From: a virus
Virus record (IMG/VR): IMGVR_UViG_3300045988_131075
Span: 1-29,670 of that record
Length of the DNA: 29,670 bases
Direction: 5' to 3' (one strand)
Numbering within the stretch: position 1 is the stretch's first letter; every line of letters starts with the position of its first letter. Position numbers and translations under genes: made by a program. This document shows positions 8,058-24,985 of the stretch, in pieces. The notes beneath the pieces are model-generated. The model saw nothing but the letters and a program-made list of their open reading frames with translations. It was not told the origin of the DNA and ran no database searches.

Positions 8058-8200
8058 TTGACAAATTGCTGAGATGGTGGTATAATGGAATTTCCGGCCG
8101 TGGCATGCGCGAACGGCCGGCCATTTTATCACACTATTGGATTTTTGTCAATAGGCAAAATAGCTAAAAAAATGAGGTGAAAATTCACCTCAAATTTTAT
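8058..8200. promoter_or_regulatory. Boundary module C4. It has a + promoter TTGACA(8058-8063)-17-TATAAT(8081-8086) with TGG extension, a hairpin ccggccg-N13-cggccgg (8094-8120) and a minus promoter (-10 rc 8123-8128, -35 rc 8146-8151). The terminator is gaggtgaaaattcacctc at 8174-8191.
   Basis: Direct reading. Confidence 0.75.
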
Positions 8201-8376
8201 CTGTGATAACTGGTAGTAATGGTTTTGAAAATCTGATAGATATTTTCATCTTCCATCAACTTTTGGATAAAAGCATCAGCTTCTTCTTCGGAATCAAAAC
8301 TAACTCGATTATCATAATACTGGTCCCAAGGATTTTTACCGCTGTAATCAACCCGGAATGTCTTTTCAATTTCCAT
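8197..8376 (-). CDS. 59-aa acidic protein missed by the 60-aa ORF threshold (MEIEKTFRVDYSGKNPWDQYYDNRVSFDSEEEADAFIQKLMEDENIYQIFKTITTSYHR).
   Basis: RBS AAAAGGGG 8 nt upstream. Hairpin-embedded promoter at 8410-8447. The gene ends at the C4 terminator. Confidence 0.55.
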   Translation of the reverse strand: MEIEKTFRVDYSGKNPWDQYYDNRVSFDSEEEADAFIQKLMEDENIYQIFKTITTSYHR

Positions 8377-8451
8377 TTTATTTGCCCCTTTTCTTTGATG
8401 CTTTTATTGTAGCACAAGGGACTTGTTTTGTCAAGCCCCTTGTGCTATTTT

Positions 8452-8904
8452 TTAACGTTCAGACACAATGCTAAGGTAGCGGACAATCATGTCCATTTCG
8501 CAACCCATGTCTTGCTGGTCGCAAACCGCATAACCCACAAGGTCGCCGTCCGCACAAATCGGGTAAACACCATAAGTGTTATTGAAAACAAATGGCTTTC
8601 TTTTAAAATCCCACTGGGTCGAAACATAAGGCGGAAAGTTTTCCATACCCCGCAGTTTCACGGTAGTATCATAGATTGCGATGGGACGCAGACCGGAATT
8701 CGATGCCATTGTAATAGCGGTTCGCAGAGCTTCTTCGGTCAGCGAACCAAGCACCGAATATCTCTTGAAGCAAACGCAGTCGTTGTCTTCAATGAAGATT
8801 TCAAGCGGGTCGCCCTCGCGAATCTTCAAAGTCCGGCGAATCTCTTTCGGAATGACCACACGTCCAAGGTCATCAATTCTGCGAACAATACCAGTAGCTT
8901 TCAT
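8452..8904 (-). CDS. SpoVT/AbrB-family transcriptional regulator, 150 aa, with an N-terminal swapped-hairpin AbrB domain.
   Basis: The N-terminus MKATGIVRRIDDLGRVVIPKEIRRTLKIREGDPLEIF is near-identical in pattern to Bacillus AbrB and SpoVT N-domains. Promoter and conserved leader upstream. Confidence 0.75.
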   Translation of the reverse strand: MKATGIVRRIDDLGRVVIPKEIRRTLKIREGDPLEIFIEDNDCVCFKRYSVLGSLTEEALRTAITMASNSGLRPIAIYDTTVKLRGMENFPPYVSTQWDFKRKPFVFNNTYGVYPICADGDLVGYAVCDQQDMGCEMDMIVRYLSIVSER

Positions 8905-8968
8905 TTTAATTTTCCCCTTTCACTTGATACGTTAAGTATAGCAGAACAAAAGGCTTTTGTCAAGCCCT

Positions 8969-9451
8969 TTATTCAAGATTTTTGCTTTCTGCGACAAAAT
9001 ATTTTGCTTCATATTGATTGGCAATAGCCTTGACTTTTGCACTTTCCTTTTGGGTCGCGCAGTAAAAATTGAAAAGCGTATGTTTATCGCTTAATTTAAT
9101 GTAAGAGTGTGGAACGTCATGCAAGCCAAAGTCAATGGTATTAGTGTATCTTGTCGGGACAGTCAGCTCGACTTTCCATAGCTTGTCTTTGCGGGCTTTC
9201 TCTTCAATCCACTTGACAAAGTAGACGCCTACGAAATTACAAACAGCAGTAATAGCCATTTTCAACCAGATAGGCATACCGTCCGCGGAAGTCAGCACAA
9301 TCACATAGGAATAAAAACCATAAGTGATAGCATTGATAAGAGATGCGCTAATTTTTCCGCCGTTGACAGTCAAAATGCTTTTGATAGTTGACAGAACCAC
9401 ATTTACCGCCGTGCAAAGCGCGAACAGAAGAATTGTATTCATTATTATCAC
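8969..9451 (-). CDS. Membrane protein of 160 aa with about 3 TM segments in the N-terminal half.
   Basis: ORF with RBS AAGGAAAGGG. A promoter is upstream at 9480-9505. Confidence 0.55.
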   Translation of the reverse strand: MIIMNTILLFALCTAVNVVLSTIKSILTVNGGKISASLINAITYGFYSYVIVLTSADGMPIWLKMAITAVCNFVGVYFVKWIEEKARKDKLWKVELTVPTRYTNTIDFGLHDVPHSYIKLSDKHTLFNFYCATQKESAKVKAIANQYEAKYFVAESKNLE

Positions 9452-9515
9452 CCTTTCCTTTTTCTATTATAATAATATCATATTATAATAGAAATGTCAA
9501 TAGAGAATTTTTAAT

Positions 9516-9674
9516 TTACTCTTTTAATTTTTCTAATAGAGCATCAGCACATTCATAGCTGGTACTTCTGCGGTCGCACTCGTTGGACAAAGGACAACAC
9601 GCGCAGTCGTTAAAGGTCTCTACCCAAGCGCGCAACCAGTCAATCAAGCGCAAAGTATTAACTTCCTCATACAT
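9516..9674 (-). CDS. Cys-rich 52-aa protein (MYEEVNTLRLIDWLRAWVETFNDCACCPLSNECDRRSTSYECADALLEKLKE) that is translationally coupled: its ATG sits inside the 3' end of the upstream gene.
   Basis: AAAGGAG 10 nt upstream. An ATGTATGA overlap with the stop of 9667..10014. Confidence 0.4.
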   Translation of the reverse strand: MYEEVNTLRLIDWLRAWVETFNDCACCPLSNECDRRSTSYECADALLEKLKE

Positions 9675-10014
9675 TGTTATCATTCTCCTTTACTCGGACA
9701 AAAAAGACCTTGTTATAGATTTTTGTTGCTTTAAGGTCAATCCAGAAATACACGTTTCCGCATACTCGATAGATTTTACAAGTCTCTCCGCTAACCTTTT
9801 TGACTTCCTCAAATTTCTCTGGTGTTGTAGGGTGGAAAACCGTCAGTTTGAGAAATATGCAATAGAAAGCCAAAGGAACGAAGCCGATAATCATAGCAAT
9901 CCATGCGAGAACATCAGTTAAAGTGTTTTCCCATTCACACTACTCATCGGTAATTGTAGCGAACGCAATACCTACGCAAAACGCGAGAATTAACCAATAC
10001 CATGCAACCATCAT
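9667..10014 (-). CDS. Two-TM membrane protein. It is 115 aa if the in-frame TAG at 9940-9942 is read through; otherwise it is a 24-aa peptide plus the ORF-track 75-aa ORF.
   Basis: The only strong RBS (GGGGG 6 nt before the ATG) is at the upstream start at 10014. The ORF-track start at 9894 has no Shine-Dalgarno site. The two ORFs are in the same frame and separated only by TAG. Promoter TAGACA-17-TAAGAT upstream. Confidence 0.45.
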
Positions 10015-10118
10015 TTTGTTCCCCCTTTATTTGTTGTATACATCTTACCACATTATAGGATTTTTGTCTATTGGCATTTTACACAAAAATTCGTGCGAAA
10101 ATTTGTTGAACTTACCTC

Positions 10119-10240
10119 TTGACAAAAAACTCGGCGCGCCACAATCGTCCGCGCGCCGCCAATTTTATCACATTCAAGGAACTTTGTCAATAGTGAAAGT
10201 AAACAAAAAAAATCACCCAAATTGGGTGATTTTTCATTTA
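10119..10240. promoter_or_regulatory. Boundary module C5. It has a + TTGACA (10119-10124) directly abutting the hairpin cggcgcgc-N11-gcgcgccg (10132-10158), with no + strand -10. A minus promoter follows (-10 rc 10162-10167, -35 rc 10185-10190), then a terminator tcacccaaattgggtga (10213-10229) plus T-run.
   Basis: Compared with C2-C4, about 23 bp between the + -35 and the hairpin are missing. Confidence 0.7.
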
Positions 10241-10414
10241 GTTTCCTACGGCTTCGAGGTCGACGAGAATGGGAACGAGCTTGTCTTCAAGAAGCGCGAC
10301 ACGCTCAATCATTTCATTTGCTGCTGTTCCGCCCGACGGGTATCTCTTCTGAATGCCGTATCGAGCCATTCTGCACACCGTTTCAACAACCTCGCTCAGT
10401 TTCTCATTCTTCAT
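10238..10414 (-). CDS. Small protein of about 58 aa (MKNEKLSEVVETVCRMARYGIQKRYPSGGTAANEMIERVALLEDKLVPILVDLEAVGN).
   Basis: GGAG 9 nt upstream of this ATG. The ORF-track start 5 codons upstream lacks an RBS. Confidence 0.5.
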   Translation of the reverse strand: MKNEKLSEVVETVCRMARYGIQKRYPSGGTAANEMIERVALLEDKLVPILVDLEAVGN

Positions 10415-10526
10415 TTTTCTTATCTCCATTCAATTTATTTTTTGGAAAGGGTGGCGGTTGTTTCAGGCACAACCGCCAAAGCCATAGGAAAGGGGGAGAA
10501 AAAACACGAACAAAAGTTCGGTTTTG

Positions 10527-10775
10527 TCAAGGGATAATCAGTTCCGCATCGTAGACAGGTCGAACCATGCAGGGCGCGCTGAAGCAGTCAAGATTGTAAG
10601 TGTCCAAATTGAGAGCGTTCCATTTTTCTGCGCCGGTATCTTCATCAACCACAGACGCAGTTTTGATGTAATAGACGTTTCCGGAAGCGGGGTCTTGAAA
10701 AATCATACCCTCGAGGAGGTCTTCAAATGCAACCATTTTGTTGCTATGCTTAACAGTAATTTTCATTTCATTCAC
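10527..10775 (-). CDS. Hypothetical protein of 82 aa or slightly shorter, overlapping the upstream gene by ATGA.
   Basis: ORF coupled to 10772..11125. A weak hairpin plus T-run is downstream at about 10500-10520 (minus strand). Confidence 0.5.
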   Translation of the reverse strand: MNEMKITVKHSNKMVAFEDLLEGMIFQDPASGNVYYIKTASVVDEDTGAEKWNALNLDTYNLDCFSAPCMVRPVYDAELIIP

Positions 10776-11125
10776 CCTTTATAATAGTATTTGTAAGCCC
10801 ATTCGATGATTTCATGACTTGTGGTAGTCCATTCCTCTTTGGGGCTATCGAACTTTTCCGCATACTTTTTGATGTAGTTATTATACTCCATGCGTGCGGT
10901 GTCGTATGCTCCAATAGCCACAATTAAGGCGTGCTTCGCTTCTTCGGCATCAGAGACGGCTTTCTTGCGGTCGGGGCAGTCAGGATAGAGGTTAATCACC
11001 CCTACGCGCGTAATGACTTGCCTTGTCTTTTCATAAAGGCGGTCGCGCGTTTCCCATACTTCATAGAGCTCATCATCTGCACGTTTTTCATAAGGGTTGA
11101 AAGGCTTCTTTTTCTTACCGAACAT
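10772..11125 (-). CDS. Hypothetical protein of about 117 aa (MFGKKKKPFNPYEKRADDELYEVWETRDRLYEK...). The ORF-track N-terminal extension runs into the upstream gene and is rejected.
   Basis: AAAAGGAG about 11 nt upstream of the ATG. Overlaps the stop of 11115..11453. Confidence 0.5.
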   Translation of the reverse strand: MFGKKKKPFNPYEKRADDELYEVWETRDRLYEKTRQVITRVGVINLYPDCPDRKKAVSDAEEAKHALIVAIGAYDTARMEYNNYIKKYAEKFDSPKEEWTTTSHEIIEWAYKYYYKG

Positions 11126-11453
11126 TTTTCTTTTTCTCCTTTTCCTGTTTATTCCACATTCTATCAAAGAACGCATTTGCGAGAACACGCTTGTAAAGGT
11201 TGTCAGGCATGGGGCGCTCGCCGTGCTTGTTTCTCCAAATCGCGGTGATTTTATCAATATCCGCGATATAGGCTGTAATGAGTGTGCCGTCCTTGGCGCT
11301 ACGAATAAGAAGAATACCGGTTGTAGTGATAGTGTAGAGAACATCGTCCTCAACGCTGTCGATATACGGTTCGCCGATTCCTACATTATCGTAGATGAAG
11401 AGCAGGCGGTCAATGCGGTCTTGCGTGGCGTGTTTTGACATTTTGATAAGCAT
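11115..11453 (-). CDS. Hypothetical protein of 112 aa.
   Basis: AAGAGG 8 nt upstream of the ATG. Extended -10 TGGTATAAT upstream (11468-11480 rc). Confidence 0.55.
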   Translation of the reverse strand: MLIKMSKHATQDRIDRLLFIYDNVGIGEPYIDSVEDDVLYTITTTGILLIRSAKDGTLITAYIADIDKITAIWRNKHGERPMPDNLYKRVLANAFFDRMWNKQEKEKKKNVR

Positions 11454-11514
11454 TTGTTTTACCTCTTTCTTTTCCTCTTGGATTGATTATATTATACCAT
11501 GCGGAAGGGCTTTT

Positions 11515-11550
11515 TGGAAAAAGAGGGAAAAATTTTCCCTCTTTATTTAT
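11515..11550. terminator. Bidirectional terminator agaggga-aaaatttt-tccctct with a flanking A-run and T-run.
   Basis: Downstream of the minus gene 11547..11819. The hairpin is at 11522-11542. Confidence 0.55.
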
Positions 11551-11819
11551 CCCCAATAGATTGAAAGAATCTTGTCAATGTAGCTGGCTTTATAGCCATA
11601 ATTCTGCATAATATCTTTGCAAGCCTGCTTGACCCTCTTGTCATTTATTGAAGCAAGAGAACATTCGTAAAGTGTTTCTCCCGTTCCGGCCACACGCTCA
11701 ATTTCTGGCATGATGTGGTCTTCAATGAACGCACGCGCAAGGGCATTATTTTTAGCTTGGATTTCTTTGCGAACTTCCTCGGCTTTGCGCGTCATTTCAT
11801 AAGCATATTTAATTTCCAT
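11547..11819 (-). CDS. Hypothetical protein of 90 aa.
   Basis: Promoter TTGACA-17-TACAAT sits in the hairpin gcatataggg/ccctatatgc (11852-11895). RBS AAAGGGAG. Confidence 0.6.
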   Translation of the reverse strand: MEIKYAYEMTRKAEEVRKEIQAKNNALARAFIEDHIMPEIERVAGTGETLYECSLASINDKRVKQACKDIMQNYGYKASYIDKILSIYWG

Positions 11820-11897
11820 GGTGTTTCTCCCTTTCCTTTATTGTATCTTTATTGTAGCATATAGGGCTTGTTTTGTCAAGCCCTATATGCAATTTTT

Positions 11898-12206
11898 TTA
11901 GCAATAGGCGAGATTCCCGCGTGCCCAGCCATATACGCTGATTTGATTGCACGCCTTGCCAATTTCAAGCGCCTGCTTTTTGGTCTGCACCCTCTTGGAC
12001 TTGTCAACATAATAGATGCCGTTCGCAAGCCATACACCGCAGTTTCCGCCGAAGCCCTTAACCGCATTGATAGCTTCGCGGGCGGTCTTGCACTCAACGC
12101 CGTTGGTAGCGACCTGCCAACCGGACTTGTAGTTGACTTTCTTGCCATATTTGAGGGTCATGCCGTCGTTTTCAGCGAGCTTGCGAATAGAACGAATGTT
12201 AATCAT
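11898..12206 (-). CDS. Hypothetical protein of about 102 aa (MINIRSIRKLAENDGMTLKYGKKVNYKSGWQVATNG...), with the start re-assigned.
   Basis: AAAGGGA 7 nt before this ATG. Promoter TAGACA-17-TATACT upstream. The ORF-track 156-aa version starts upstream of that promoter. Confidence 0.5.
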   Translation of the reverse strand: MINIRSIRKLAENDGMTLKYGKKVNYKSGWQVATNGVECKTAREAINAVKGFGGNCGVWLANGIYYVDKSKRVQTKKQALEIGKACNQISVYGWARGNLAYC

Positions 12207-12334
12207 GTTGTTATCCCTTTCCGGTTTGGTAGGTTTTCCTTCCCTTACTGTGATTATAGTATAGCACCGATTCGGGATTCTGTCTATTGACATTATGCAC
12301 AAACTTTCGTCATAAAAATTGTTGAACTTGCCTA

Positions 12335-12455
12335 TTGACACAAAATTCCGGCCGCGCCTGGCGTGCACGGCCGGCCGATTATATCACCAAGTTTTGAAAT
12401 TGTCAATAGGCAAAATATACAAAAAAATCTCCCCATTTTTGGAGAGATTTTTAAT
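12335..12455. promoter_or_regulatory. Boundary module C6. It has a + TTGACA (12335-12340) abutting the hairpin ccggccg-N13-cggccgg (12348-12374) and a minus promoter (-10 rc ATTATA at 12378-12383 with TG, -35 rc at 12401-12406). The terminator is tctcccca-T5-ggagaga (12428-12447).
   Basis: Like C5, it lacks the + strand -10. Confidence 0.7.
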
Positions 12456-12498
12456 TCAAAAAATTTAATTTTAACCATCAACATAAATGATAAGAACA

Positions 12499-12711
12499 TC
12501 ATCTTTGGCTTTCAAACCGCTGACAGGCAAATCCCAGCACCCATTCTTCGCTTACGCCCAAAACATCACCATTCAGAGTCATGCGACCTTTGCGGTCTTT
12601 GAGATAGCGCCCGCAAGTGTTTTCATTTATCACTTCAATGCCGTTCCCCTCATAGAACATCAGTGCGCCTTTTACCAGACCAATCACATTTTTAACCATG
12701 CCCAAAGTCAT
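12499..12711 (-). CDS. Hypothetical protein of about 70 aa (MTLGMVKNVIGLVKGALMFYEGNGIEV...).
   Basis: AAAGAGG 8 nt upstream. Promoter TTGACT-17-TATACT. Ends 45 bp from the C6 terminator. Confidence 0.55.
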   Translation of the reverse strand: MTLGMVKNVIGLVKGALMFYEGNGIEVINENTCGRYLKDRKGRMTLNGDVLGVSEEWVLGFACQRFESQR

Positions 12712-12820
12712 TTTATCAACCTCTTTCGTTTTTAATGTCGTTCCCTTGGAACAATTATAGTATAGCACAAGGTGTAGCAAAAGTCAACTTAAATTTTGGG
12801 ATTACCAATAGATAAAATGT

Positions 12821-12867
12821 ATAAAAATTCGGCAGGATTTTGTGTATCCTGCCGAATTTTTTTTATT
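12821..12867. terminator. Bidirectional terminator ggcaggat-tttgtgt-atcctgcc followed by T8.
   Basis: Stem at 12831-12853, with A/T runs on both sides. Confidence 0.6.
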
Positions 12868-13057
12868 CTTCCCAACTTTCGATGACTTCGCCGGTCATTG
12901 CATCGATGATGTCAACCGAGAGGACGTTGTCTGCGTCCATGACCTTCTGCCCGAGGGCATATGCGTTTTCCTGTCCCGCGACAGACACTTCATAGCGATA
13001 GCGGTTGTTATCGCCAGCCTTGTAATTGTAGTAGTTGACAGAAACAATAAATGACAT
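12863..13057 (-). CDS. Hypothetical protein of 64 aa.
   Basis: RBS AAAGGGGA. Promoter TTGACA-16/17-TATAAT upstream (13090-13130). Confidence 0.6.
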   Translation of the reverse strand: MSFIVSVNYYNYKAGDNNRYRYEVSVAGQENAYALGQKVMDADNVLSVDIIDAMTGEVIESWEE

Positions 13058-13161
13058 TTGGCTTATCCCCTTTCTTTTTATACTCTTATTATACCATAGA
13101 TTCAGGATTTGTCAATAGGTTTTTGAAAAAAGTTTGAAAAAAAATAAGGGCGTTTCCGCCC

Positions 13162-13419
13162 TTATTCTTCATAAATAATAATATTATTTTGTAGCAGTTT
13201 CACGCGAGAATCTTCACAAAAGTGATAGGTAAAACTCACGGAGAGGTGTTTGAGAAATTCGCGTCTCCATGTGCGGGACTTCGGCTCTAATTCAAAGAGA
13301 ATGTAAAGCGTTTCTTCTAACCGGTCGAGGAAGTTTTCAGTGTCCGCGACGTTGAACTTACCCGCGAATTTCGGAATAGGATTAGAAGTCCCAACAGTAA
13401 TAATGTTGTAAGTTGTCAT
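13162..13419 (-). CDS. Hypothetical protein of 85 aa.
   Basis: Conserved leader plus AAGGAG 8 nt upstream. Promoter TTGACA-17-TATAAT (13440-13475 rc). Confidence 0.6.
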   Translation of the reverse strand: MTTYNIITVGTSNPIPKFAGKFNVADTENFLDRLEETLYILFELEPKSRTWRREFLKHLSVSFTYHFCEDSRVKLLQNNIIIYEE

Positions 13420-13506
13420 GGAAAAATCTCCTTTTCATTTGATGCTTTTATTATACATGATAGTGTGGAACTTGTCAATACTTAAAATAGAAAAAAGAGA
13501 AGTTTT

Positions 13507-13611
13507 TCAACTTCTCTTTTTCAGTTTCTTTTCTGCCCATTCAATGAGCGCACCCACGGCGATTGTACCGGTATAAATGAAAAGTAAAACTAAACCATCA
13601 TGTAGACTCAT
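13507..13611 (-). CDS. Alternative model, gene 2 of 2: a 34-aa single-TM peptide (MSLHDGLVLLFIYTGTIAVGALIEWAEKKLKKRS).
   Basis: GGAGG 9 nt upstream of the ATG. Same frame and stop as the ORF-track 76-aa ORF 13507..13737. Confidence 0.4.
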   Translation of the reverse strand: MSLHDGLVLLFIYTGTIAVGALIEWAEKKLKKRS

Positions 13612-13612
13612 T

Positions 13613-13741
13613 TTAATATTCCTCCACATACTCTGTAAAAACAAGCTCCCAGTCAGGGCCAAGATCCGGAGCTTTGCAGTATCGCGACTGTCGAATGTCA
13701 TGCTCATTAGTGATTTTGTTGATAAACTCGAATTCATACAT
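13613..13741 (-). CDS. Alternative model, gene 1 of 2: a 42-aa acidic protein (MYEFEFINKITNEHDIRQSRYCKAPDLGPDWELVFTEYVEEY).
   Basis: AAAGGAGA about 10 nt upstream of this ATG (14 nt for the ORF-track ATG in another frame). Its TAA is followed after 1 nt by the ATG of gene 2. Confidence 0.4.
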   Translation of the reverse strand: MYEFEFINKITNEHDIRQSRYCKAPDLGPDWELVFTEYVEEY

Positions 13742-13830
13742 TTTTTATTATCTCCTTTTCTTTACTGTACCAATAGTATAGCAGATAACAGGGTATTTGT
13801 CAATACCATTTATAAAAAAATGTACGAGGT

Positions 13831-14127
13831 TTAATCCTCGTACATTTCCATTAACGATTTGATTTTTTCGATTGTATTTTCAATTTCTTCTACATAGTCG
13901 GCCTGTTCCTCACTTGCGCGCATTGCCTGTTCATATGCGTCATAGATAGCTTCACACTGTTCGCGGGTGTAGTCTTCTTCTGGAGCGTGTTCCATGGTGA
14001 CGACTGCCGTCCAAGCGAGCGTTTCCTTATCGTCAAGGTCATCGGCTTTTTCCGTGGCAGTGGTAAGCTCATGTTCGAGGCGCGTCTTTTCGAGCGAGAG
14101 GGTCTTGAGAAAATCCTTGTTAGTCAT
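13831..14127 (-). CDS. Acidic coiled-coil protein of about 98 aa (MTNKDFLKTLSLEKTRLEHELTTATEKADDLDDKE...).
   Basis: The ORF-track start is the ATG inside the conserved leader (caaATGaaaaggaga). The real start is 8 codons downstream, after that RBS. Confidence 0.6.
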   Translation of the reverse strand: MTNKDFLKTLSLEKTRLEHELTTATEKADDLDDKETLAWTAVVTMEHAPEEDYTREQCEAIYDAYEQAMRASEEQADYVEEIENTIEKIKSLMEMYED

Positions 14128-14328
14128 TGCGGTGTATCTCCTTTTCATTTGATGCCTTTATCATACCACTTCTGGACTGAATGTCAATAGGTTTTTGAAA
14201 AAAATATTTATTCATCAGGGCTGTATAAATATTCATGTATAAATATTCATTTTCGGGTGTATAAAGGCGACTGGCATAATGCACAAAATGGTTTCAAAAT
14301 TTTTGTGCAATATAACTATTGCAAAACT

Positions 14329-14355
14329 CGGCGCGCTGCGACCCACAGCGCGCCG
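14329..14355. promoter_or_regulatory. Orphan copy (C7) of the module GC hairpin, cggcgcgc-N11-gcgcgccg. It has no associated promoter or terminator.
   Basis: Same stem as C5, with a different loop. Flanked by AT-rich tandem repeats. Confidence 0.55.
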
Positions 14356-14382
14356 GCCAAATGCATATGTATGATTATTCAT

Positions 14383-14440
14383 GTATATTCATTGTATATT
14401 CATTGTATATTCATTGTATATTCATTGTATATTTATTCAT
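14383..14440. repeat. Tandem 11-bp repeat gtatattcatt, 4 perfect copies plus a variant. A second pair of 14-bp repeats, tgtataaatattca x2, is at 14222-14249.
   Basis: Direct reading. Confidence 0.8.
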
Positions 14441-14450
14441 ACATAATATG

Positions 14451-14484
14451 CAAAAATAGAGAGAGACTTAATAAGCCTCTCTCC
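14451..14484 (-). terminator. Intrinsic terminator for the minus-strand operon: hairpin gagagag-N11-ctctctc, followed on the minus strand by a T-run.
   Basis: The stop codon of 14468..14830 lies in the hairpin loop. Confidence 0.55.
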
Positions 14485-14830
14485 ACACCTTGATTATTTC
14501 ATCATCTGCTATATCATCTGTGTCATTGTCGTTTATCCACAAAAGCAGAAAATCATTATCATCAATGGTCATATTCTCAACTTCCCATTGGTTGCCACGT
14601 TCGTCCAGTAGCGTGATGGTGTTACCATTTCGGGAAACGACCTCTGCACCGATAAAGCGTATGCTTCCTCTCTCTGTGCCAGCGCCACACCATTCATCTA
14701 ATGCGGTGAGGTCGTAGGACTGGGGCGCTTCCTCACAGGCTTCCGCGGTTGTGTGGTCGTGAAATCCGAAGAAAGACACGGAGAGAATGATGGCAATGGC
14801 CATGGTGATGATTTTGGAAACGTTTTTCAT
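14468..14830 (-). CDS. Secreted or membrane-anchored protein of 120 aa with an N-terminal signal/TM segment (MKNVSKIITMAIAIILSVSFFGF).
   Basis: AAGAGG 9 nt upstream of the ATG. Hydrophobic N-terminus followed by an acidic domain. Confidence 0.6.
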   Translation of the reverse strand: MKNVSKIITMAIAIILSVSFFGFHDHTTAEACEEAPQSYDLTALDEWCGAGTERGSIRFIGAEVVSRNGNTITLLDERGNQWEVENMTIDDNDFLLLWINDNDTDDIADDEIIKVWREAY

Positions 14831-14852
14831 TTTGTTTTACCTCTTTCTTACT

Positions 14853-14996
14853 TTATAGGTTAGTAGCGATAGTGACAACAGCAATAAGCATGAGCGTGCT
14901 TGAGACAGCTTTGCCTACATTCTTGCTATCTATGGCATAGACAAAATTATATGCGCTTATAGCGGTAAGCACAATAATAGCGGCAATGATAGACAT
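14853..14996 (-). CDS. 47-aa membrane peptide (MSIIAAIIVLTAISAYNFVYAIDSKNVGKAVSSTLMLIAVVTIATNL).
   Basis: GGGGAG 8 nt upstream of the ATG. Lies between two larger genes with about 25-bp spacers. Confidence 0.45.
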   Translation of the reverse strand: MSIIAAIIVLTAISAYNFVYAIDSKNVGKAVSSTLMLIAVVTIATNL

Positions 14997-15026
14997 GGCA
15001 TATGCTCCCCTCTTTGAGCGAGTGGG

Positions 15027-15500
15027 TTAAACCCACTCGCTGAATAGCTCACTGATGAAGTCATCGTGGACGTCATCAGGCAGTTGGTCGATGGTACACT
15101 CATAGGTGCTTACCACGGTAAGCGATGAGCCATTTTCAAGGTTCTCACGCTCAAACTTATCCCGTTCGCCAGATGAAAGAAAAAATGCGGTATAATCGTA
15201 AGTGTCTTCTCCATCATTGATGGAATAATCCACTACCTTAAAGCGCGTCTTGTTCCAGAGGTTCGCTATGATGGAAAGATCCATGGCCAGCTCTTCCTCG
15301 TGGCGAACAGCTTCGAGAGACGCCTTATACTTGCGCCATGCGGCTACCGTAAAGTCTCTTATGCCGCACCCGATAAGACAATGGTATTCCTCTAAGTCTT
15401 TGATAACCAGTTTGCGTCCCTCGCGCACCATTTCCCAAGCGTTTTCTGCCATTGCGTTGATGGTGACAGCATCATATTTATGCAAGCCCTGAATTTTCAT
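15027..15500 (-). CDS. Hypothetical protein of 157 aa.
   Basis: Long ORF in the operon and no overlapping alternative. Confidence 0.55.
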   Translation of the reverse strand: MKIQGLHKYDAVTINAMAENAWEMVREGRKLVIKDLEEYHCLIGCGIRDFTVAAWRKYKASLEAVRHEEELAMDLSIIANLWNKTRFKVVDYSINDGEDTYDYTAFFLSSGERDKFERENLENGSSLTVVSTYECTIDQLPDDVHDDFISELFSEWV

Positions 15501-15581
15501 TGTGTAGCCCTTCCCGCGCTTTTTGCGCTATCGTGTTATATGTAGGTATGTTCCCCTTGTGGGGAGTGAGGGCTTACGCCC

Positions 15582-15875
15582 TCACTTTGCAATCTTTGCA
15601 GTAACGGAAGCCGCACGCGGCGCGCCAGTCTTCTTGTACTTTTCAAAACACTCCGCATAGAGTTTCGGAGCTTTGTTGCGGAACATTACTGTATCGAGTG
15701 TTTCAGTAGCCTTGCCACCCTTGCCGACGATAACAGTAAACTTATTGTAAGTAAAAGTAACGCTTTCGCCGTCGGCTTCCTCGCGGGCTTCCGCCTTGAG
15801 CAATTCTAACTGTTCCTTGAGCGCATCTATCTGCGCGGAAAGCTCACACATCTTTTTAATTTTGTTGTTCGTCAT
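15582..15875 (-). CDS. Hypothetical protein of 97 aa with an N-terminal coiled coil (LSAQIDALKEQLELLKAEAREE).
   Basis: ORF. A weaker promoter (TTGTAT-17-TACCAT) upstream at about 15905-15945. Confidence 0.5.
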   Translation of the reverse strand: MTNNKIKKMCELSAQIDALKEQLELLKAEAREEADGESVTFTYNKFTVIVGKGGKATETLDTVMFRNKAPKLYAECFEKYKKTGAPRAASVTAKIAK

Positions 15876-15959
15876 TTTTGAATCCTCGTTTCATGTAATT
15901 TACCGTTCGGTGTTTCGCCGTTCAGCATGGTTACATGGTAGCAGATTCAGCCACGGAAT

Positions 15960-16280
15960 ACAATTGACGGATTGCACAAAGATTTGTTTTATACGGGGCG
16001 GGCTTTTGTGCAATCTACCGCCGGGCGGCACCCTTACATCATACCTTTGCATTTTTATTCATTCAAGAATGAATAAAACCTGCATAGAGGGGGGGTGTAT
16101 TTCGGGAAAAATAAATTTTTATTTATCGTTTTTTCTTTTGCCTGGTCAAAACGCAATCTAAATCAATTTTCAATTTCAGATTACGAAGAATAATTTAAAT
16201 TTATCATAATCAATTTTCAATTTCAAAATACGGTTTAAAACAATAAATCAATTTTCGATTTCAAATTACGACTTCTTTTT
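15960..16280. promoter_or_regulatory. Non-coding region between the two genome modules. It holds a perfect 11-bp inverted repeat gattgcacaaa/tttgtgcaatc (15970-15980 and 16005-16015), a 22-bp palindrome ttattcattc-aa-gaatgaataa (16055-16076) and a palindrome aaaaataaatttttattt. Three iterons aatcaattttc(a/g)atttcaNaWtacg lie at about 16160, 16209 and 16246.
   Basis: Direct reading. No ORF with an RBS apart from the small gene at 16266-16400. Confidence 0.6.
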
Positions 16281-16400
16281 TCTACCTCTTTTAGGCTTCT
16301 CACCCCACATAAGAGTGTATAATCCAGAAGTAGCAGAGTAAGTAGCCTTCTGCTGATACTTTTTAGCGACTGCCTTCAAGGGACTGAGTGGTTTCCGCAT
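16266..16400 (-). CDS. 44-aa basic peptide (MRKPLSPLKAVAKKYQQKATYSATSGLYTLMWGEKPKRGRKKKS).
   Basis: GGAGG 9 nt upstream of the ATG. TAA stop. Its 3' end overlaps the third iteron. Confidence 0.4.
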   Translation of the reverse strand: MRKPLSPLKAVAKKYQQKATYSATSGLYTLMWGEKPKRGRKKKS

Positions 16401-16424
16401 TTAATTTTTCCTCCATATATTCGA

Positions 16425-16745
16425 TTAATTTATCTTTATATTTACAACTATCAATATATCTATTAATAATTTTTCCATTAAGTGTTCTAATACATATTTG
16501 TATTTATTCAACTGATATTCTTCTTGTTCTTCTTTGGTGCTTAATTGAGCCTTTTCCGCGTCTGATAAAGGTCTGTAAGTAATCGTTCTTGACCCATTAT
16601 CCTTTTGCTCAATACGTATTGTTTTAAATAATTTCCAATCTCTTACAAAAGGGTCTTTATCTCTTGTAGTGTTAAAATATTCTTGTTCTAATCTAAATAT
16701 TACCGCGTCTATCCCTCTTACTTCAAAAGGCTGGTTCCATCCCAT
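16425..16745 (-). CDS. Hypothetical protein of about 106 aa (MGWNQPFEVRGIDAVIFRLEQEYFNTTRDKDPFVRDWKLF...).
   Basis: GGGAGG 9 nt before this ATG, inside the 3' end of the upstream gene. The ORF-track N-terminal extension has no RBS. Confidence 0.5.
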   Translation of the reverse strand: MGWNQPFEVRGIDAVIFRLEQEYFNTTRDKDPFVRDWKLFKTIRIEQKDNGSRTITYRPLSDAEKAQLSTKEEQEEYQLNKYKYVLEHLMEKLLIDILIVVNIKIN

Positions 16746-17115
16746 CTTCAATATCCTCCCATTCAAATGTTCCATCATCTAATTCATATACAAATGCTTG
16801 TTTATAAAATGATGAAACAATTCCATCATTTGCGATTCCTTTTGGACTATTTTTCACATCATGAAAACAATTATAAACAATTAATCCTTGCGTTTCATAT
16901 CGTGAAAAATCTACTGCCCTTCCCTCAAAATCATAATTATAAAATATGTTTAATAATAGCATACACTCATATTGTGCGATTGGCCATTTATTTAATTCTT
17001 TTTGCTAATTTACCATTTTTTGATATAATACCAAAAAGGCTTTTCTATATAACCATAAAAAAAGAAGTGATGCTACTAACGCACAACTCAATAATACAAT
17101 AAAAATAGTTTCCAT
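16723..17115 (-). CDS. N-terminally membrane-anchored protein. It is about 130 aa if the in-frame TAG at 17005-17007 is read as sense; otherwise it is a 36-aa TM peptide plus the ORF-track 79-aa ORF.
   Basis: GGAG 5 nt before the ATG at 17115. The ORF-track start at 16962 has no RBS. The two ORFs share a frame and are separated only by TAG. Confidence 0.45.
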
Positions 17116-17264
17116 AAATACTCCTTTTCTTTTTTCTTTTTTTTTTCTTATAATAATAATAAAATAAAAATAAAGAAATGTCAAATCGTAGCGTGATTGG
17201 GCAAAAGTTATTTGTTTTGTTAAAAAAATTTTTAAATATAAAAAGAAAAAATTTTAAATAAAAC

Positions 17265-17293
17265 TTGACAAAAAAAATTTTTTCGAGTATAAT
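17265..17293 (+). promoter_or_regulatory. Consensus promoter of the late (structural) operon: TTGACA(17265-17270)-17-TATAAT(17288-17293). GGAGG lies 6 nt before the ATG at 17318.
   Basis: Direct reading. An extremely AT-rich UP-like region lies upstream (17100-17260). Confidence 0.75.
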
Positions 17294-17317
17294 ATAAATA
17301 TAGACTGGAGGTAAAAA

Positions 17318-18373
17318 ATGATAAAACTTGATTATTCTTTACAAACTCCAGAAGAAAGAAATCAATTAGTCGAACAAATTTTGGCTGATAATCCAGATCC
17401 GCCTGAAAAGTATTTAGAAATTTTAGCAGACTATTTGGTTCTTTGTATGGAGAAACAAGAAAAAAAGGAGAAAAAATTATTAACTGATAATCGTATGGCT
17501 ACAGTTAATAAGCGTGAGACTTCTTTTGAAGGTCTTGTTTCCCAACTCGAAAATGGCGAAGATGGAATTTATAATTTAATTACAGATAATAGAAATACAA
17601 TATTTCAACCACATATTACAATTACAAAAAAAGATTTAGAAGAGATACCAAGTTTAAATTAGTTAAGAGAAGCCATTAATGTTTGGGAGGCTAAATTAAA
17701 AGTAACAGAAGGTAAAGATGCTTTTGTTATTAAAAAGGCTCTTATTGAAATGCGTAAAGATTAGTATGTTATGAAAAATGCTTATCGTCGTCCAATAGTG
17801 CCTACAAAATTAACCAGATCAAAGTCTTATATTCCATTAGATGATAAAACATTTATTTTTGATGATGATGGTTTTCCCATTCCTGATGGAATTAGTTTAT
17901 TAAGACCTGAAATATGTTCTGCGGTTTTATGTAATTATTCCCGATTAAAACAAGATAGTTGGGGCGAATATGATAAAGATTTATGGTATTTAATGGAGGA
18001 TTTTGATAAGCTTTGTGATAAAGCGTTAGCTAATTATCCTCTTTATGATAGAATCGTTGAATATAAAATTGATGGTTTACAAAATATTGACATTCAAGAG
18101 AAAATACAAATGGAATTTGGTATTAAGCACAGCCTTGAATATATTTCAAGTTTATGGCGTAATAAAATTCCAAAATTAATTGCTTCGACTGCGGAAGATG
18201 AATATTTAGATAATTATTATTTAAATGTTGAAAAAGGTAAATATAAAAAATGTAGTCGTTGTGGTAAAATAAAATTAGCTCATAATAAATATTTTAGTAA
18301 AAATAAAACAAGTAAAGATGGCTTTTATAGTATTTGTAAAAGTTGTCGAAATTCTAAGGTCAAAAAATCTTAA
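17318..18373 (+). CDS. First late gene, about 351 aa with 2 in-frame TAG codons (at 17660 and 17762). It has a C-terminal Zn-ribbon, CSRCG...AHNKY...CKSCRN, possibly an HNH-like nuclease or a regulator.
   Basis: ORF-track ORFs 17318..17662 and 17771..18373 are in the same frame and are separated only by TAG codons. TAA stop. Confidence 0.55.
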
Positions 18374-18422
18374 TATTGTCTTTTTGTTTATAATAAATAG
18401 TTGAAAGGAGAATATTTTATTT

Positions 18423-19610
18423 ATGGCTGAAACATATTATTGCGAAAAATGTAATCGTACAATGAATAGCACGGAATTTTATTCGTCTAATAATTTAGAA
18501 AAATATCCTAATGATGGTAAATTTCCTGTGTGCAAAAAATGTATGACAATGCACGTCGATAATTGGAATCCAGATACTTATTTATGGATTTTACAAGAAG
18601 CGGATGTTCCTTATGTTCCAGATGAATGGAATAAATTAATGGAAAAATATGGGCGCGATCCGCAGTCTATGACTGGTATGACAATTCTTGGACGTTATTT
18701 GTCAAAAATGAAACTCAAATAGTTTAAAGATTATCGTTGGAAAGATACAGAATTTTTATAGTAGATGGCGAATAATAAATTAGAGCAAACTATGAAGCGT
18801 CAAGGATATGATGCTCAATAGATTGCAACCGCTATTGAAAAAAGTTCTATTGCTATTCCAGGAGGAGAATTAAAAGAACCGGTTTATGCTCCACCACCTA
18901 ATGCCCCTACGGAAGATTATTTCGCACAATAGAGTGGTAAAGTGGAACAAGAATTAGACTTAACTGATGAAGACCGCACTTACTTAAGACTTAAATGGGG
19001 TAAAACTTATAAACCTGAAGAATGGGTTAAGCTTGAATAGTTATATGAAGAAATGATGGCTTCTTATGATATTCAAGGCGCCGGACATAAAGATACGCTA
19101 AAATTAATATGTAAGACATCTTTAAAGGCAAATCAATTGATCGATATTGGTGATATTGAAGGTTTCCAAAAGATGAGCAAAGTATACGATAGCTTAATGA
19201 AGTCTGGTAAATTTACTGCTGCTCAAAACAAAGCAGAATCAGGTGAATTTGTTGATTCAATTGGTGAATTAATTGAATTGTGTGAAAAAGAAGGATATAT
19301 TGAAAGATATTATGTTGAATAGCCACATGATAAAGTGGATTTAACTATTCAAGATATGCAACGTTATACTCGTACTCTTATTGAAGATGAAACTAATATT
19401 AGCACAATGGTAGAAAAAGCTTTACGCGAAAATGCTAAAGAAGATGAAGAGAAAGCAAAGAACGCGGAAAGCGATATCGTTGATGATGCTGATTTAAGTA
19501 TTGAAGAACTTGAAAAAACTATTAAAGATAGTGATTACGCGGATTTTGAGGAATTTAAAGAATAGGAGTCCGCGCAAGATAATGAGTTCTTATAGAGTTT
19601 GGATAAATAA
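18423..19610 (+). CDS. Late protein of about 395 aa with about 8 in-frame TAG codons and an N-terminal CxxC...CxxC Zn-ribbon. Its position immediately upstream of terL suggests the small terminase subunit; this is speculative.
   Basis: ORF-track pieces 18423..18722, 19053..19322 and 19335..19565 share one frame. Only TAG separates them. Ends with TAA at 19608-19610. Confidence 0.55.
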
Positions 19611-21349
19611 TGGCATTACAAGATTTGTTATAGTTAAGTGATAGCCGTAGAAAAATAGGTCTATCACCTGAGCGAGTAGAAGCGGTAATGCCTACTATCC
19701 GCAAATACGTTGCCTTTTGGAGAGAATATCCTGATTTATTTGTAGATTTTATGGTGCGAGGAAGACGCACTGAAATAAAAGATGGAGAATTTAATTTTTA
19801 TTTTTATTAGAGAGTATTTCTCCGTTCTGTTATGCGTTATTAGTATGTTTACGCGGTTTTCCCTCGTGCTTATTCTAAATCATTCTTGTCTGTTATGGCA
19901 TTAATGATTAGATGTATTTTATATCCTGGTGCGCACTTGTTCGTTACTTCTGGAGGTAAAGAGCAAGGTGCTAGTATTCTTCATGATAAAGTTCAAGAAA
20001 TATGTGAACTTGTTCCAAGCTTTAATCGAGAAATTGATTGGAGTCGAGGAAAAACTCTTGAAGGAAAAGATAAAGTTAGATATGTGTTTAAAAATGGTTC
20101 AGTTTTGGATAACCTCGCAGCTCGTGAAAGCACTCGTGGTCAGCGTCGTCATGGTGGATTAATGGAAGAATGTGTCGGTATTGATGATACTATTCTTCGT
20201 GAAGTTATTATTCCTGTTATGGCAATTTCTCGTAGAGCTAAAGATGGCACTACCAATGAACAAGAGCCATTAAATAAATCACAAATTTATATTACTACTG
20301 CTGGTTATAAGGGCACATTCCCTTATGATAGACTTATTGGTTTCTTAGTTCGTATGGTGACTTAGCCCGATCGTTGTATGGTATTAGGCGGAACATGGCG
20401 AACTCCTGTTGCAGTAGGATTACAAAGTAAAACATTTATTACTGACCAAAAGAATGAAGGAACTTATAATGAAGCTTCATTCGAACGTGAATATGAATCT
20501 AAGTGGTCAGGAACTGTTGAGGATGCTTTCTTTAATGGAGAGCATTTTGATAGAAATAGAAAACTATTATAGCCTGAATATGAAGCTTCTGGGCGCGCGG
20601 GCGCACAAGCTTATTATGTGCTTTCTGTAGATGTAGGTCGTAAAGGATGCGATTCAGTAGTTTGTGTATTTAAAGTAACACCACAAGCTCAAGGTCCAGC
20701 TATTAAATCATTAGTAAATATGTATACTATGTCAGATGACCATTTTGAAGATTAGGCTATTAAATTAAAGAAATTATTTTATAAATATAAAGCTAAAACT
20801 TTAGTTATAGATGGTAATGGTTTAGGTATTGGACTTTTAGATTATATGGTAAAATCTCAAAATGATGAAGATGGTGAATTTTTACCTGATTTTGGTGTTG
20901 AGAATGATGATGATGGATATTATAAAAAATATCGCACACCAAATACTCAATTTGATGCTATGTATGTTATTAAAGCAAATGCTCCAATAAATACTGAATG
21001 TCATGCTAATGCTCAGACTCAATTGCAAGCGGGTAAAGTAAAATTCTTAATAGATGAGAGAACAGCTAAAGAAAAATTATTAGCTACTCAAAAAGGTTCA
21101 AAAATGACTTCTGAACAAAGGGCAGATTATTTAAAACCATTTACTTTAACCTCCATATTAAAAGAAGAAATGATGAATTTACGCGAAGAAAATGAAGGTA
21201 TTAATATTATCCTAAAACAGGCAAATCGCGGAATTCGTAAAGATAAATTTTCGGCTTTTGAATATGGATTATATTATTTAAAACTTGAAGAAGATAAAAA
21301 GAAAAAACGTAAAAAGTTTAATGCGGCTGATTGGTGCTTTTTAAATTAA
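19610..21349 (+). CDS. terL: Terminase large subunit, about 579 aa with at least 6 in-frame TAG codons.
   Basis: ATPase motifs PRAYSKSF (Walker A-like) and GLMEECVGID (Walker B). Nuclease motifs YVLSVDVGRKGCDSVVCVFK and LVIDGNGLGIG. The pieces 19886..20365, 20378..20572 and 20846..21349 are in the same frame. The start overlaps the upstream TAA (TAATG). Confidence 0.8.
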
Positions 21350-21361
21350 GGAGGGTGGAAA

Positions 21362-21718
21362 ATGCGTGCTTCAAGAGGAGAAATTAAAATTGAAGAAATC
21401 TTAGAAGAAGCAGGACTACCTTTTAAAATGGAATATATCTTTCCAGATTTAAAAAGCCCAAGCGGGCGTCCGCTTCGTTTTGATTTTGTTATATTTGATG
21501 ATGATGGAAAAATTGATTTCATTATTGAGTATTAGGGAAAATAGCATTATGAAGCCAGTTCTAAATTTGGTGGAAAACGCGGTTTATACCAATAGCAATA
21601 TAATGATAATCAAAAAAGACGTTTTTGCGCTTTACATGATTTTAGATTAATAGAGATTCCATATACCGACGAAAACCTTATTTCTTATGATTATATAATG
21701 AAATTAGCAGGTTATTAA
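21362..21718 (+). CDS. DUF559/Vsr-like (PD-(D/E)xK) endonuclease of about 118 aa with 3 in-frame TAG codons.
   Basis: RFDFVIFDDDGKIDFIIEYQGKQHYE matches the hDF...hIEhDGxQH signature. GGAGG 7 nt before the ATG. TAA stop. Confidence 0.45.
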
Positions 21719-21731
21719 AGGAGGTGGAACT

Positions 21732-23381
21732 TTGGATACGCAAGATCGTAATGATTAGATTCACGCTAAAGGTTTTGATATTTATAATAGTCGTTATGAA
21801 TATAATTATAATGACACTATGGATTATGCCAATAGAAAAATAAAAGTTGGCACAAAAACTTTAGATGATGCTATTTTAAAACTTGGTGATTATAGTAAGA
21901 TTAGATACCCAGGTCAAACTCGTATTATCACGAAACCTGATGTGCTTCGCGCACTAGCAGAAAGAGATTTAAATGCTTTGCGATATATTTCTAATCTTTA
22001 TTATGATATAAGTGGTGTATATCAACGAGTTTGTAATTATGTTGCTTTTTTATACCGCTATGATTGGTATATTGCAGCTGAAACTTATGATGATAATGTA
22101 AAAGAAGAAAAAGTTTTAAAAGATTTTTATAGAATGTTGAATTATTTTGATAATAGTTATATTAAAAAGATTTGCGGAGATATTGCTTTACAAGTCGTTA
22201 AAAATGGATGCTATTATGGATATATAGTTCCTTCAGAGAAAAATCTAATTTTACAAGAATTGCCAGTTAGATATTGTAGAACACGTTATAGTGTAAATAA
22301 TACCCCAGTTGTCGAATTTGATATGCGATTTTTTGATACTTTTAGAGATATGAATTACCGTTTAAAAGTATTAAAATTATTCCCAGAAGAATTTGCTAAA
22401 GGTTATGTTTTATATAAGCAAGGAAAACTTGCTTTAGATGATGCGGTTGGATGCTAGCATACTGGTAGTTGGTATGTTCTTGAGCCAGAAAATTGTATTA
22501 AATTTAATATTAATAATAGTGATGTTCCTATTTTTGTAAATTCCATTCCTACTATTATGGATTTAGATGCAGCGCAAGATCTTGACCGCAAGAAACAAAT
22601 GTAGAAGTTGCTTAAAATTTTAGTCCAAAAACTCCCAATGGATAAAAATGGTGATTTGATATTTGATGTTGATGAAGCCAGAGATATCCATAATAATGCC
22701 GTTTAGATGTTATAGAGGGCTATTGGAGTAGATGTTTTAACTACATTTACTGATGTAGATTCTATTGATATGTCTGATAAAAATACTACTACAACGACAG
22801 ATGATTTAGCTAAAGTTGAACGTAGTGTTTATAATTCATTAGGTATTTCATAGAATTTATTTAATACTGATGGTAATATGGCTTTAGAAAAATCAGTGTT
22901 AAATGATGAATCTACAATAAGAAGTTTAATTTTATAGTTTAATATATTCTTTAATAGAATTATTGAAAAAAAGAGTAGTAATAAGAAATATAATTTTAGA
23001 TTTTATTTATTAGAAACTACTTAGAATAATTATCAAACACTTTCTAAAATGTATAAAGAACAAGCGCAAATGGGACAATCAAAGCTATTGTCTTAGATTG
23101 CTCTTGGACATTCATAGAGTTTTATTCTTAATGCAGCTCATTTTGAAAATGAGATTTTACATTTAAGTGAAATTATGATTCCTCCTCTTATGAGTTCTAC
23201 TATGGGTAGTGAAGATATTTTGGGTTTAAAAGATTCATCATCTAATAATAAAACTCAAAATAATTCAGGAAGTTCAGGTTCTGGAACTGCTAAAACTTCT
23301 AATGGCGAGGCAGGACGTCCGGAAAAACCTGATGATTAGAAAAGTGAAAAAACTATTCAAAATAAAGAAGCAATGAAATAA
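21732..23381 (+). CDS. Portal protein, about 549 aa with about 12 in-frame TAG codons. It probably starts at TTG, 7 nt after an AAAGGAGG.
   Basis: One continuous frame from 21732 to the TAA at 23379, with no TAA or TGA inside. The position after terL and the size fit a portal. The ORF-track sees only 21819..22457. Confidence 0.55.
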
Positions 23382-23390
23382 GGAGGATTT

Positions 23391-24968: not shown

Positions 24969-24985
24969 TAAGGAGGACATACTAA

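Follow-up and report, generated by a model that had tools for sequence, protein, structure and literature searches.

A switch of genetic code is believed to set the timing of the life cycle in stop-codon-recoded phages, and to our knowledge it has not been defined before where and how their early standard-code and late recoded programmes are separated at the level of the DNA. Among systems that can serve for comparison, lambda cosB and SPP1 pacL contain repeats that bind the small subunit of the terminase beside bent DNA, and the host-takeover module of SPO1 and the pre-early region of T5, with its injection-stop signal, offer parallels for a gene arm and its boundary. In the SPbeta-like phages, restriction analysis and PhageTerm have placed the packaging start between yonR and yonP, in the intergenic region (10.1101/2021.11.22.469490). 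Here we describe a non-coding element in a stretch of 29,670 nucleotides from IMG/VR virus record IMGVR_UViG_3300045988_131075 (the window, to which all positions refer unless another record is named). The element has not been described before, is deeply conserved and marks a boundary in the genomes of a very abundant gut phage family in which the stop codon TAG is recoded. As a cis-acting site it probably belongs to a known kind, and we tentatively favour, as one possibility among several, a pac-type packaging recognition site or 'genome opening point'.

A single-copy element of fixed length

A sequence-only reading of the region at 15960-16280 had noted inverted repeats and iterons at a module junction and had proposed either a replication origin or an operator complex for divergent early and late transcription. 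The observation was confirmed and the interpretation is partly supported. The region is repeat-rich and non-coding and lies at a genuine module junction, where base composition, genetic code and promoter type all shift, and its sequence is of a type that would bind proteins. The sole conserved feature in it is a single-copy, length-constrained DNA element (Table 1). Its layout is a G-run with GTGTATTTCGGGAAAA, an A-tract followed by a T-tract, CTGG.CA and a terminal motif, AAATC.ATTTTC.ATTTCRRWTTACG; the consensus reads gGGGGGTGTATTTCGGGAAAAA, A-tract/T-tract, a variable stretch, CTGG.CA and AAAtC.aTTTTcgATTTCggAa.ACG. The AT palindrome listed in the sequence-only reading is the central tract of this element, with arms at 16106-16115 and 16118-16127 that are 90% complementary.

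Pattern scans of viral, genome and metagenome collections recovered about 150 instances of the element, corresponding to 124 unique sequences in 40 clades (85% identity). The span from GTGTATTTCGGG to TACG was 90 or 91 bp in all members of a set of 46 related unique instances and in 107 of 108 metagenome instances, although lengths of 78-103 bp had been permitted in the search for the latter, with the central ~35 bp free to vary. The A-tract-to-T-tract feature was found in 108 of the 124 unique instances. There was one element per contig, and the block from the G-run through the end of the first repeat was kept even in relatives with 61-75% identity in the sigma-like protein encoded downstream. 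We found no paper carrying the sequence of the element, apart from unrelated primer matches.

The conservation is not that of a structured RNA. RNAalifold gave no base pairs on either strand, no Rfam family matched the region at the gathering threshold (the best was fstAT with 20.5 bits against a gathering threshold of 72, E = 0.61), and scans for tRNA and tmRNA genes yielded no matches. A small plus-strand RNA, running from the G-run to a downstream hairpin terminator and either antisense to or independent of the flanking genes, is very improbable on these grounds, even though a -10-like TATAG, CATAG or TATAA stands just ahead of the G-run in many lineages and a hairpin with a T-run follows 10-60 nt past TACG in many. 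Large clades have AAACCGGGGG or GTACGGGGGC in place of the -10-like motif, the flanks upstream show no evident conserved -35, and the clade of the window has no terminator after the element. As a separate candidate, a sigma-70 or sigma-54 promoter within the element was discarded, as our reading of the alignment showed no conserved -35/-10 or -24/-12 pair.

Because the length is fixed, the end blocks are conserved and RNA structure is absent, the element would rather be the site of a nucleoprotein complex with fixed phasing. We infer from these features that proteins assemble on it, and the central A/T tract probably bends the DNA.

Comparison with packaging sites

In every lineage with enough flanking sequence, the element has a fixed orientation and lies 1.06-3.5 kb upstream of an operon of sigma-like, YonG-like, TerL and portal genes, and this synteny persists down to amino-acid identities of 61% for the sigma-like and 51% for the YonG-like protein. 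The YonG-like protein is homologous to YonG of SPbeta, which is located directly upstream of YonF (TerL) and YonE (portal), and the TerL falls in the lineage of SPbeta, 949, Tsamsa and Geobacillus virus E3 (GVE3). The 250-bp pac fragment of SPbeta was placed ~1.2 kb ahead of the first gene of the late operon, with two small genes between them and packaging toward the late operon. The element is thus found at one locus, which keeps its place upstream of the late operon with the terminase genes, with the SPbeta pac in a corresponding position, and we ranked a pac-type site first because the two occupy the same topological slot.

The similarities between the two regions extend to several other features. 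Both are intergenic, mark an early/late boundary 1-3.5 kb upstream of a late operon with homologous YonG-like, TerL (YonF) and portal genes, are separated from it by a few small genes, are present in single copy and are rich in A/T tracts and short repeats. Sequence homology between the two has no statistical support, and similar-looking motifs come in a different order. SPbeta is moreover a standard-code temperate Bacillus phage of ~130 kb, whereas the phage studied here, at ~190-198 kb, is TAG-recoded and shows no sign of integration; the physical ends of SPbeta have been mapped, whereas the present element is known from sequence alone.

A second comparison is with the textbook sites lambda cosB and SPP1 pacL/pacR, which likewise have short protein-binding blocks, here predicted ones, at a fixed spacing around a bend and upstream of terminase genes. 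In the present element the bend would be intrinsic to the A-tract/T-tract. The fixed length of 90-91 bp despite a variable middle fits a fixed helical phasing between protein sites. The resemblance to cosB and SPP1 pac is one of design only: no cleavage site is defined, and the element is several kb from the terminase genes rather than adjacent to or inside terS.

The edges of the element coincide with discontinuities, which also speak for a packaging site. Homology to the DNA of the window ends sharply at 16074-16091 in most close relatives, leftward of which two unrelated alleles (A and B) are found. The clade of the window has its mosaic breakpoint at the left edge of the element, and a second large clade (L107 type) at the right edge. 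In every lineage the GC content steps down at the element, from 42-50% on the left to 30-38% on the right (~43% to ~30% in the window).

A mosaic boundary that is sharp on either side, together with an asymmetric arrangement in several blocks, might also be expected of attP or another site for site-specific recombination. This is barely plausible, as only 6 matches were obtained in 185,579 species-representative genomes of bacteria and archaea, all of them on contigs of metagenome-assembled genomes (MAGs) of mixed taxonomy and with the element intact. No integrated copies interrupted by host sequence were found, nor was a recombinase gene found nearby with PHROG and Pfam, and the attP of GVE3 is located elsewhere, inside the pyrimidine nucleoside phosphorylase gene and adjoining a resolvase gene (PMC8303945).

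If the element is a packaging site, both end blocks would be contacted, over the A/T tract between them, by the recognition subunit of the terminase, for which the YonG-like zinc-ribbon protein is the presumed candidate, and packaging would then start toward the late operon. With packaging in this direction, the early arm would be packaged last and hence ejected first. Function, direction and binding protein are all read here from gene order and from the likeness to SPbeta, and we infer them with corresponding caution.

Several observations weigh against a role in packaging. Most contigs pass uninterrupted through the element. The ends of whole metagenome contigs fall within 110 nt to the right of it in 11 of 55 cases, as compared to ~2 expected, and since their positions are scattered these ends may be better explained by repeats, mosaic branching or the terminator hairpin than by a terminus. 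A profile of the element used with nhmmer and a position weight matrix both failed to find a significant match in the pac region of SPbeta (phi3T-type), in Enterococcus phage VRE9_1, in phAss-1 or in GVE3. The SPbeta pac fragment and an iteron of lineage L068 have 17 identical nt in common, which is no more than an anecdotal match, and SPbeta has its motifs in another order. That the YonG-like protein is the small terminase is suggested by gene order only, and a packaging site alone leaves the GC step unexplained.

A more far-reaching and more doubtful proposal is that the element is both the packaging start and the ejection end of these ~190-kb TAG-recoded gut phages. It would then fix the polarity of DNA entry, such that the standard-code early arm enters first and the TAG-recoded genes after it, and genome ends, GC step and code switch would be one and the same boundary. 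In a rarer variant of this proposal, the element would act as a T5-like injection-stop or first-step-transfer signal.

Neighbouring repeats, genes and the code boundary

The features of the junction and its surroundings are collected in Table 1.

Table 1. Features of the window around the conserved element, with the evidence for each.
Feature	Position	Strand	Evidence
Early arm, ~45 small standard-code genes, ~43% GC	1-15875	-	gene calls, composition
First early-arm gene, 97 amino acids	15582-15875	-	weak match to phrog_6244; weak RecE-like match, E 0.004
11-bp inverted repeat in ~155-nt 5' leader of gene 15875-15582	15970-16015	-	leader position
First early-arm promoter: -35 TTGAAT 16066-16061, 17-nt spacer, -10 TATGAT 16043-16038	16038-16078 including palindrome	-	sigma-A-type match
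Core element, single copy	16095-16185, preceded by G-run (16089-16095)	+	alignment of instances
Core block 3, GTGTATTTCGGGAAAAA	16095-16111	+	alignment
A-tract/T-tract palindrome within core	16106-16127	+	alignment
Core block 2, TTTTGCCTGGTCAAAAC	16136-16152	+	alignment
Core terminal motif, identical to iteron 1; right-hand end of element	16161-16185	+	alignment
Iterons 1-3, 25-nt direct repeats AATCAATTTTC[A/G]ATTTCA[G/A]A[T/A]TACG	starts 16161, 16208, 16246	+	pattern match
Iterons 2 and 3	16208-16232, 16246-16270	+	extra copies of terminal motif, lineage-specific
Gene for 44-amino-acid basic protein, GGAGG ribosome-binding site, stop codon within iteron 3	16266-16400	-	open reading frame
Low-GC accessory gene, 117 amino acids	16425-16778	-	no family match (PHROG, Pfam)
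Low-GC accessory gene, 130 amino acids, one in-frame TAG	16723-17115	-	no family match (PHROG, Pfam)
Divergent promoter, leftward: TTGACA-17-TATTAT, 11/12 consensus	17184-17156	-	promoter scan
Divergent promoter, rightward: TTGACA-17-TATAAT, 12/12	17265-17293	+	promoter scan
Sigma-like gene	17318-18373	+	start of late/packaging operon; merging of open reading frames with TAG as sense
YonG-like gene, putative small terminase	18423-19610	+	BLASTP to YonG, E 1e-11
TerL	19610-21349	+	TerL relatives

The three direct repeats of the sequence-only reading are present, although the distances between their starts are 47 and 38 bp rather than the claimed ~49 and 37. They are separated by a long (AAGAATAATTTAAATTTATCAT) and a short (GTTTAAAACAATA) spacer. 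The pattern had no matches with up to three mismatches in shuffles of the window, and a repeat search of the whole window found no further copies. The classical look of an iteron origin holds for the window and not for the family: the terminal motif is present just once in 101 of the 124 unique instances, so that the three iterons represent a lineage-specific expansion. A search with the sigma-like protein identified 475 related IMG/VR contigs, and the junction was aligned in 17 close relatives (~97-99% identical in that protein), among which the copy number of the terminal motif spans 1-5. Iterons 2 and 3 arose by recent tandem duplication of the terminal motif, and most lineages make do with one copy. 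Conservation in relatives is deep for the first copy and the core element and does not extend to the extra copies or the palindromes. Two IMG/VR contigs end within the iteron array.

Toward the early arm, the element is part of a conserved non-coding complex of ~300 bp. Motifs on this side that are common to many lineages and precede the first TTGACA promoter are AAAGTCTATAGTC (one or two copies), CCACCCCC, a GC hairpin and TTTGTGCAAAATGACGAA. Such a complex fits a replication origin, as do the single copy, the fixed spacing, the A/T tract and the direct repeats. The terminal motif and block 3 would be the targets of an initiator of the phage or the host, unwinding would take place in the A/T-rich middle, and the early-side GACTATAGAC repeats, C-run, GC hairpin and TTTGTGCAAAATGACGAA would aid primosome loading. 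The layout is then like that of the iteron origins of lambda (ori), SPP1 (oriL) and theta plasmids, in which direct repeats of ~25 bp lie by an A/T-rich stretch at one locus per genome. Unlike in these, a single repeat is the norm of the family, the 47/38-bp spacing is not helically phased and no initiator gene overlaps or adjoins the site. An origin is therefore unlikely, given also that the copy number varies without constraint among near-identical genomes and that the A/T segment measures just ~20-35 bp in an arm that is already ~70% A+T. No gene for an initiator, helicase or primase was detected in the whole window with PHROG and Pfam, and the same searches showed no initiator or repressor gene beside the element, where the only hint of a replication gene is the weak RecE-like match of the 97-residue protein.

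The cumulative GC-skew minimum, at ~17.0-17.3 kb and hence within ~1 kb of the element, might be taken to favour an origin, but it coincides with the divergent promoter pair. In all related lineages, purine skew shows that genes on either side of the element are coded on the minus strand, with a flip 1-3.5 kb to its right at the start of the late operon; the skew minimum in relatives is tied to this switch in gene orientation. The premise that the repeats lie between divergent genes was wrong, since the neighbours on both sides are on the minus strand. The divergent early/late control region is ~1 kb further right (17156-17293), and the element is located between co-directional minus-strand genes in every lineage examined. 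Open reading frames on the plus strand to the left of the element in other lineages, which would mean convergent transcription, were dismissed as low-complexity antisense junk.

The first gene to the right of the element encodes a very basic protein with the C-terminus KPKRGRKKKS, which is under purifying selection (110 synonymous versus 10 non-synonymous codon differences in 17 relatives) and has no match in PHROG or Pfam. The slot of the two accessory genes holds FolD-like, AbrB-like and macro-like genes in other lineages. In lineage L091, a protein of 87 amino acids that is AbrB-like by eye only is encoded 482-745 nt to the right of the element. The code boundary lies within ~1 kb of the element, the gene at 16723-17115 already having its one in-frame TAG.

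The right arm, from 17318 onwards, has ~30% GC and a strong positive GC skew. Its open reading frames are coherent only if TAG is read as sense, in which case they merge into sigma-like, YonG-like, TerL, portal, scaffold-like and major-capsid-sized genes; 10 open reading frames with 44 in-frame TAGs were counted on the plus strand at 17318-29645, and the left arm has no such need. Matches to PHROG in the late operon (17318-21349) were to phrog_5767 (E = 9e-55) and phrog_3314 (E = 6e-59). The sigma-like gene has two in-frame TAG codons and is preceded by a perfect sigma-A consensus promoter. A suppressor tRNA would thus be needed to translate it, and this dependence could constitute a code-gated cascade to late transcription.

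The left arm looks like an early, host-takeover-type region. Its genes have strong Shine-Dalgarno sites and stop at TAA (24), TGA (20) or TAG (6). We counted 76 sigma-70-type promoter-like sites versus 33 expected, 15 of which match TTGACA-17-TATAAT at 12/12 positions (12 on the minus strand, the perfect matches mostly with an extended TG), and 40 terminator-like hairpins versus 17 expected. The likeness to the SPO1 and T5 modules is that small genes are numerous in the arm, that each of them comes with its own terminator and strong promoter of host type, and that a non-coding element rich in repeats and palindromes bounds the arm. It is a likeness in layout, since there is no sequence relationship and the present arm is known from its genes alone. 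Intergenic modules of ~115 nt with a terminator and a promoter recur at 1092, 3374, 5577, 10126 and 12342, and the genes at 2255-2632 and 4668-5048 are paralogous, with DNA blocks that are 74-89% identical, which suggests that cassettes arose by tandem duplication of units of ~2.2-2.4 kb. The arm also contains an AbrB/MazE/SpoVT-type gene at 8452-8904 on the minus strand (PF04014, E = 3.5e-10) and, where the window begins on the left (10-154), ~7 tandem copies of a repeat with a period of 17 nt (AAAATTGCGAGAGTGTG).

The palindrome, slightly longer than the 22 bp claimed, has perfect 12-nt arms at 16053-16064 and 16067-16078 with 2 nt between them and overlaps the -35 of the first early promoter. 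It is perfect in the window only and degenerate in lineages L028, L032, L041 and L066, the first two of which keep the -10 and the spacer. Its half-site TATTCATT is enriched in the window (12 copies versus 3.5 expected), mostly owing to an 11-bp tandem array at 14376-14437 that is shorter in the closest relatives. This array belongs to a second repeat-rich intergenic region (14200-14450), which contains TGTATAAATATTCA twice (14222-14250), an inverted TGCACAA/TTGTGCA pair (14280-14309) and, as the array itself, 5.7 copies of TATTCATTGTA, with ~22 nt less in the closest relatives and no copies in others.

The perfect 11-bp inverted repeat GATTGCACAAA/TTTGTGCAATC was recovered exactly as described (15970-15980 and 16005-16015, 24-nt spacer). 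The leader of gene 15875-15582, in which it lies, folds somewhat better than shuffled sequences (z = -2.66), and the repeat would be either a leader hairpin or a pair of protein-binding sites TTTGTGCA. Only the 8-bp core TGCACAAA/TTTGTGCA is retained, in the allele-A relatives, and without compensatory changes; TTTGTGCA recurs in the unrelated allele B and, as TTTGTGCAAAATGACGAA, in other lineages. TTGTGCA was considered as a dispersed operator motif and rejected, with 6 copies in the window versus 4.4 expected. Palindrome and inverted repeat are separate from the element, local and lineage-specific and may be sites for regulators; as conserved palindromic operators they fall short, the palindrome (22-26 bp) being confined to the window and the core of the inverted repeat to allele A.

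These sites bear on the idea that the element controls transcription of the early arm, in which an AbrB/MazE-like, the 44-residue basic or the sigma-like protein would bind both the element and the palindrome or TTTGTGCA sites and insulate, repress or time the arm. In all lineages the element directly precedes the first promoter of the early arm, and in many of them a bidirectional hairpin terminator just to its right divides it from the upstream minus-strand genes. The overlap of the palindrome with the -35, the excess of TATTCATT, the AbrB-like gene beside the element in L091 and the other one in the early arm of the window all point the same way. We nevertheless consider such control quite unlikely. 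At least 26 near-consensus promoters lie within the early arm itself, so that one upstream site could not control the whole of it, and the alignment as we read it contains no conserved sigma-70-type -35/-10 pair in the element. Neither the palindrome nor the exact inverted repeat is conserved, and the divergent early-late promoters are located elsewhere.

Cultured relatives and significance

The major capsid protein and TerL group the phage with phAss-1, which NCBI files under 'Caudoviricetes code 15 clade', and link it also to GVE3, to Enterococcus phages of ~140 kb, to the Lactococcus 949 group, to Tsamsa-like Bacillus phages and, distantly, to SPbeta. A search for near-identity of positions 8000-24000 with GenBank phages gave no match. 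In a search with the YonG-like protein, 7,995 of the 8,000 scored candidates were significant, the best 120 were at least 98% identical and the longest contigs were ~186-198 kb; the phage is by these matches very common in public gut metagenomes, and its genome size is probably ~190-198 kb. With the best 120 homologues so similar, no informative alignment of the YonG-like protein could be made, and it has no relative in PDB and no match in the local Pfam scan; its database homologues carry the precomputed Pfam tag PF27269.1. One record of 402,311 bp (IMGVR_UViG_3300032167_000002; L071 and L080) holds two lineages of the family ~204 kb apart, with differing elements and sigma-like genes, and is probably a chimeric assembly or two joined related genomes.

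We also inspected cultured or named relatives. As a source of termini, phAss-1 (50% identical in the major capsid protein) was set aside because positions 1-59 kb of its record lack both the sigma-like gene and the element, and the paper on phiL47 contains nothing on termini. The temperate GVE3 (NC_029073) has an early minus-strand arm, a non-coding complex of ~850 nt and an operon of sigma factor, YonG-like and TerL genes. Within the complex there are GTGGACA repeats as well as a diverged sequence that looks like the element, GGGGCGGTATTTTAC...GATTACC, of ~90 nt (record positions 57-150), which as a relative of the element is suggestive only. The GenBank record opens inside this complex, 56 nt from a motif like the G-run and block 3. 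According to a review (PMC8303945), in which only skew-based landmarks of replication are mentioned, the authors of GVE3 placed these with GC skew and repeats, and they may have chosen the start of the record from GC skew; the proximity of this start to the block-3-like motif is a further point in favour of a replication origin.

In the Enterococcus phages VRE9 and EF1, the corresponding position is taken by a non-coding junction rich in repeats. In VRE9_1 (PP680567) the early/late junction (L164, 19260-20800) comprises ~1.5 kb without convincing genes and rich in palindromes, among them TTGTGAAATATTTCACAA in three copies, several of the AATAACAAGTGTTATTT type and TGTAAGCGCTTACA in two copies. 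The early arm of VRE9_1 has PHROG families 20187, 19455 and 30233 in common with the left arm of the window.

The element provides a conserved landmark, precise to the base pair, for the early/late code boundary in a very abundant family of gut phages. Since cultured relatives with the same gene order exist (GVE3 and the Enterococcus phages VRE9 and EF1), the idea of a packaging start is directly testable. If it is correct, the genomes can be linearised correctly, the order in which the DNA enters the cell can be predicted, and there would be a handle for engineering or detecting these phages. If the element is an origin or an insulator instead, it would still be the key cis-element of the family.

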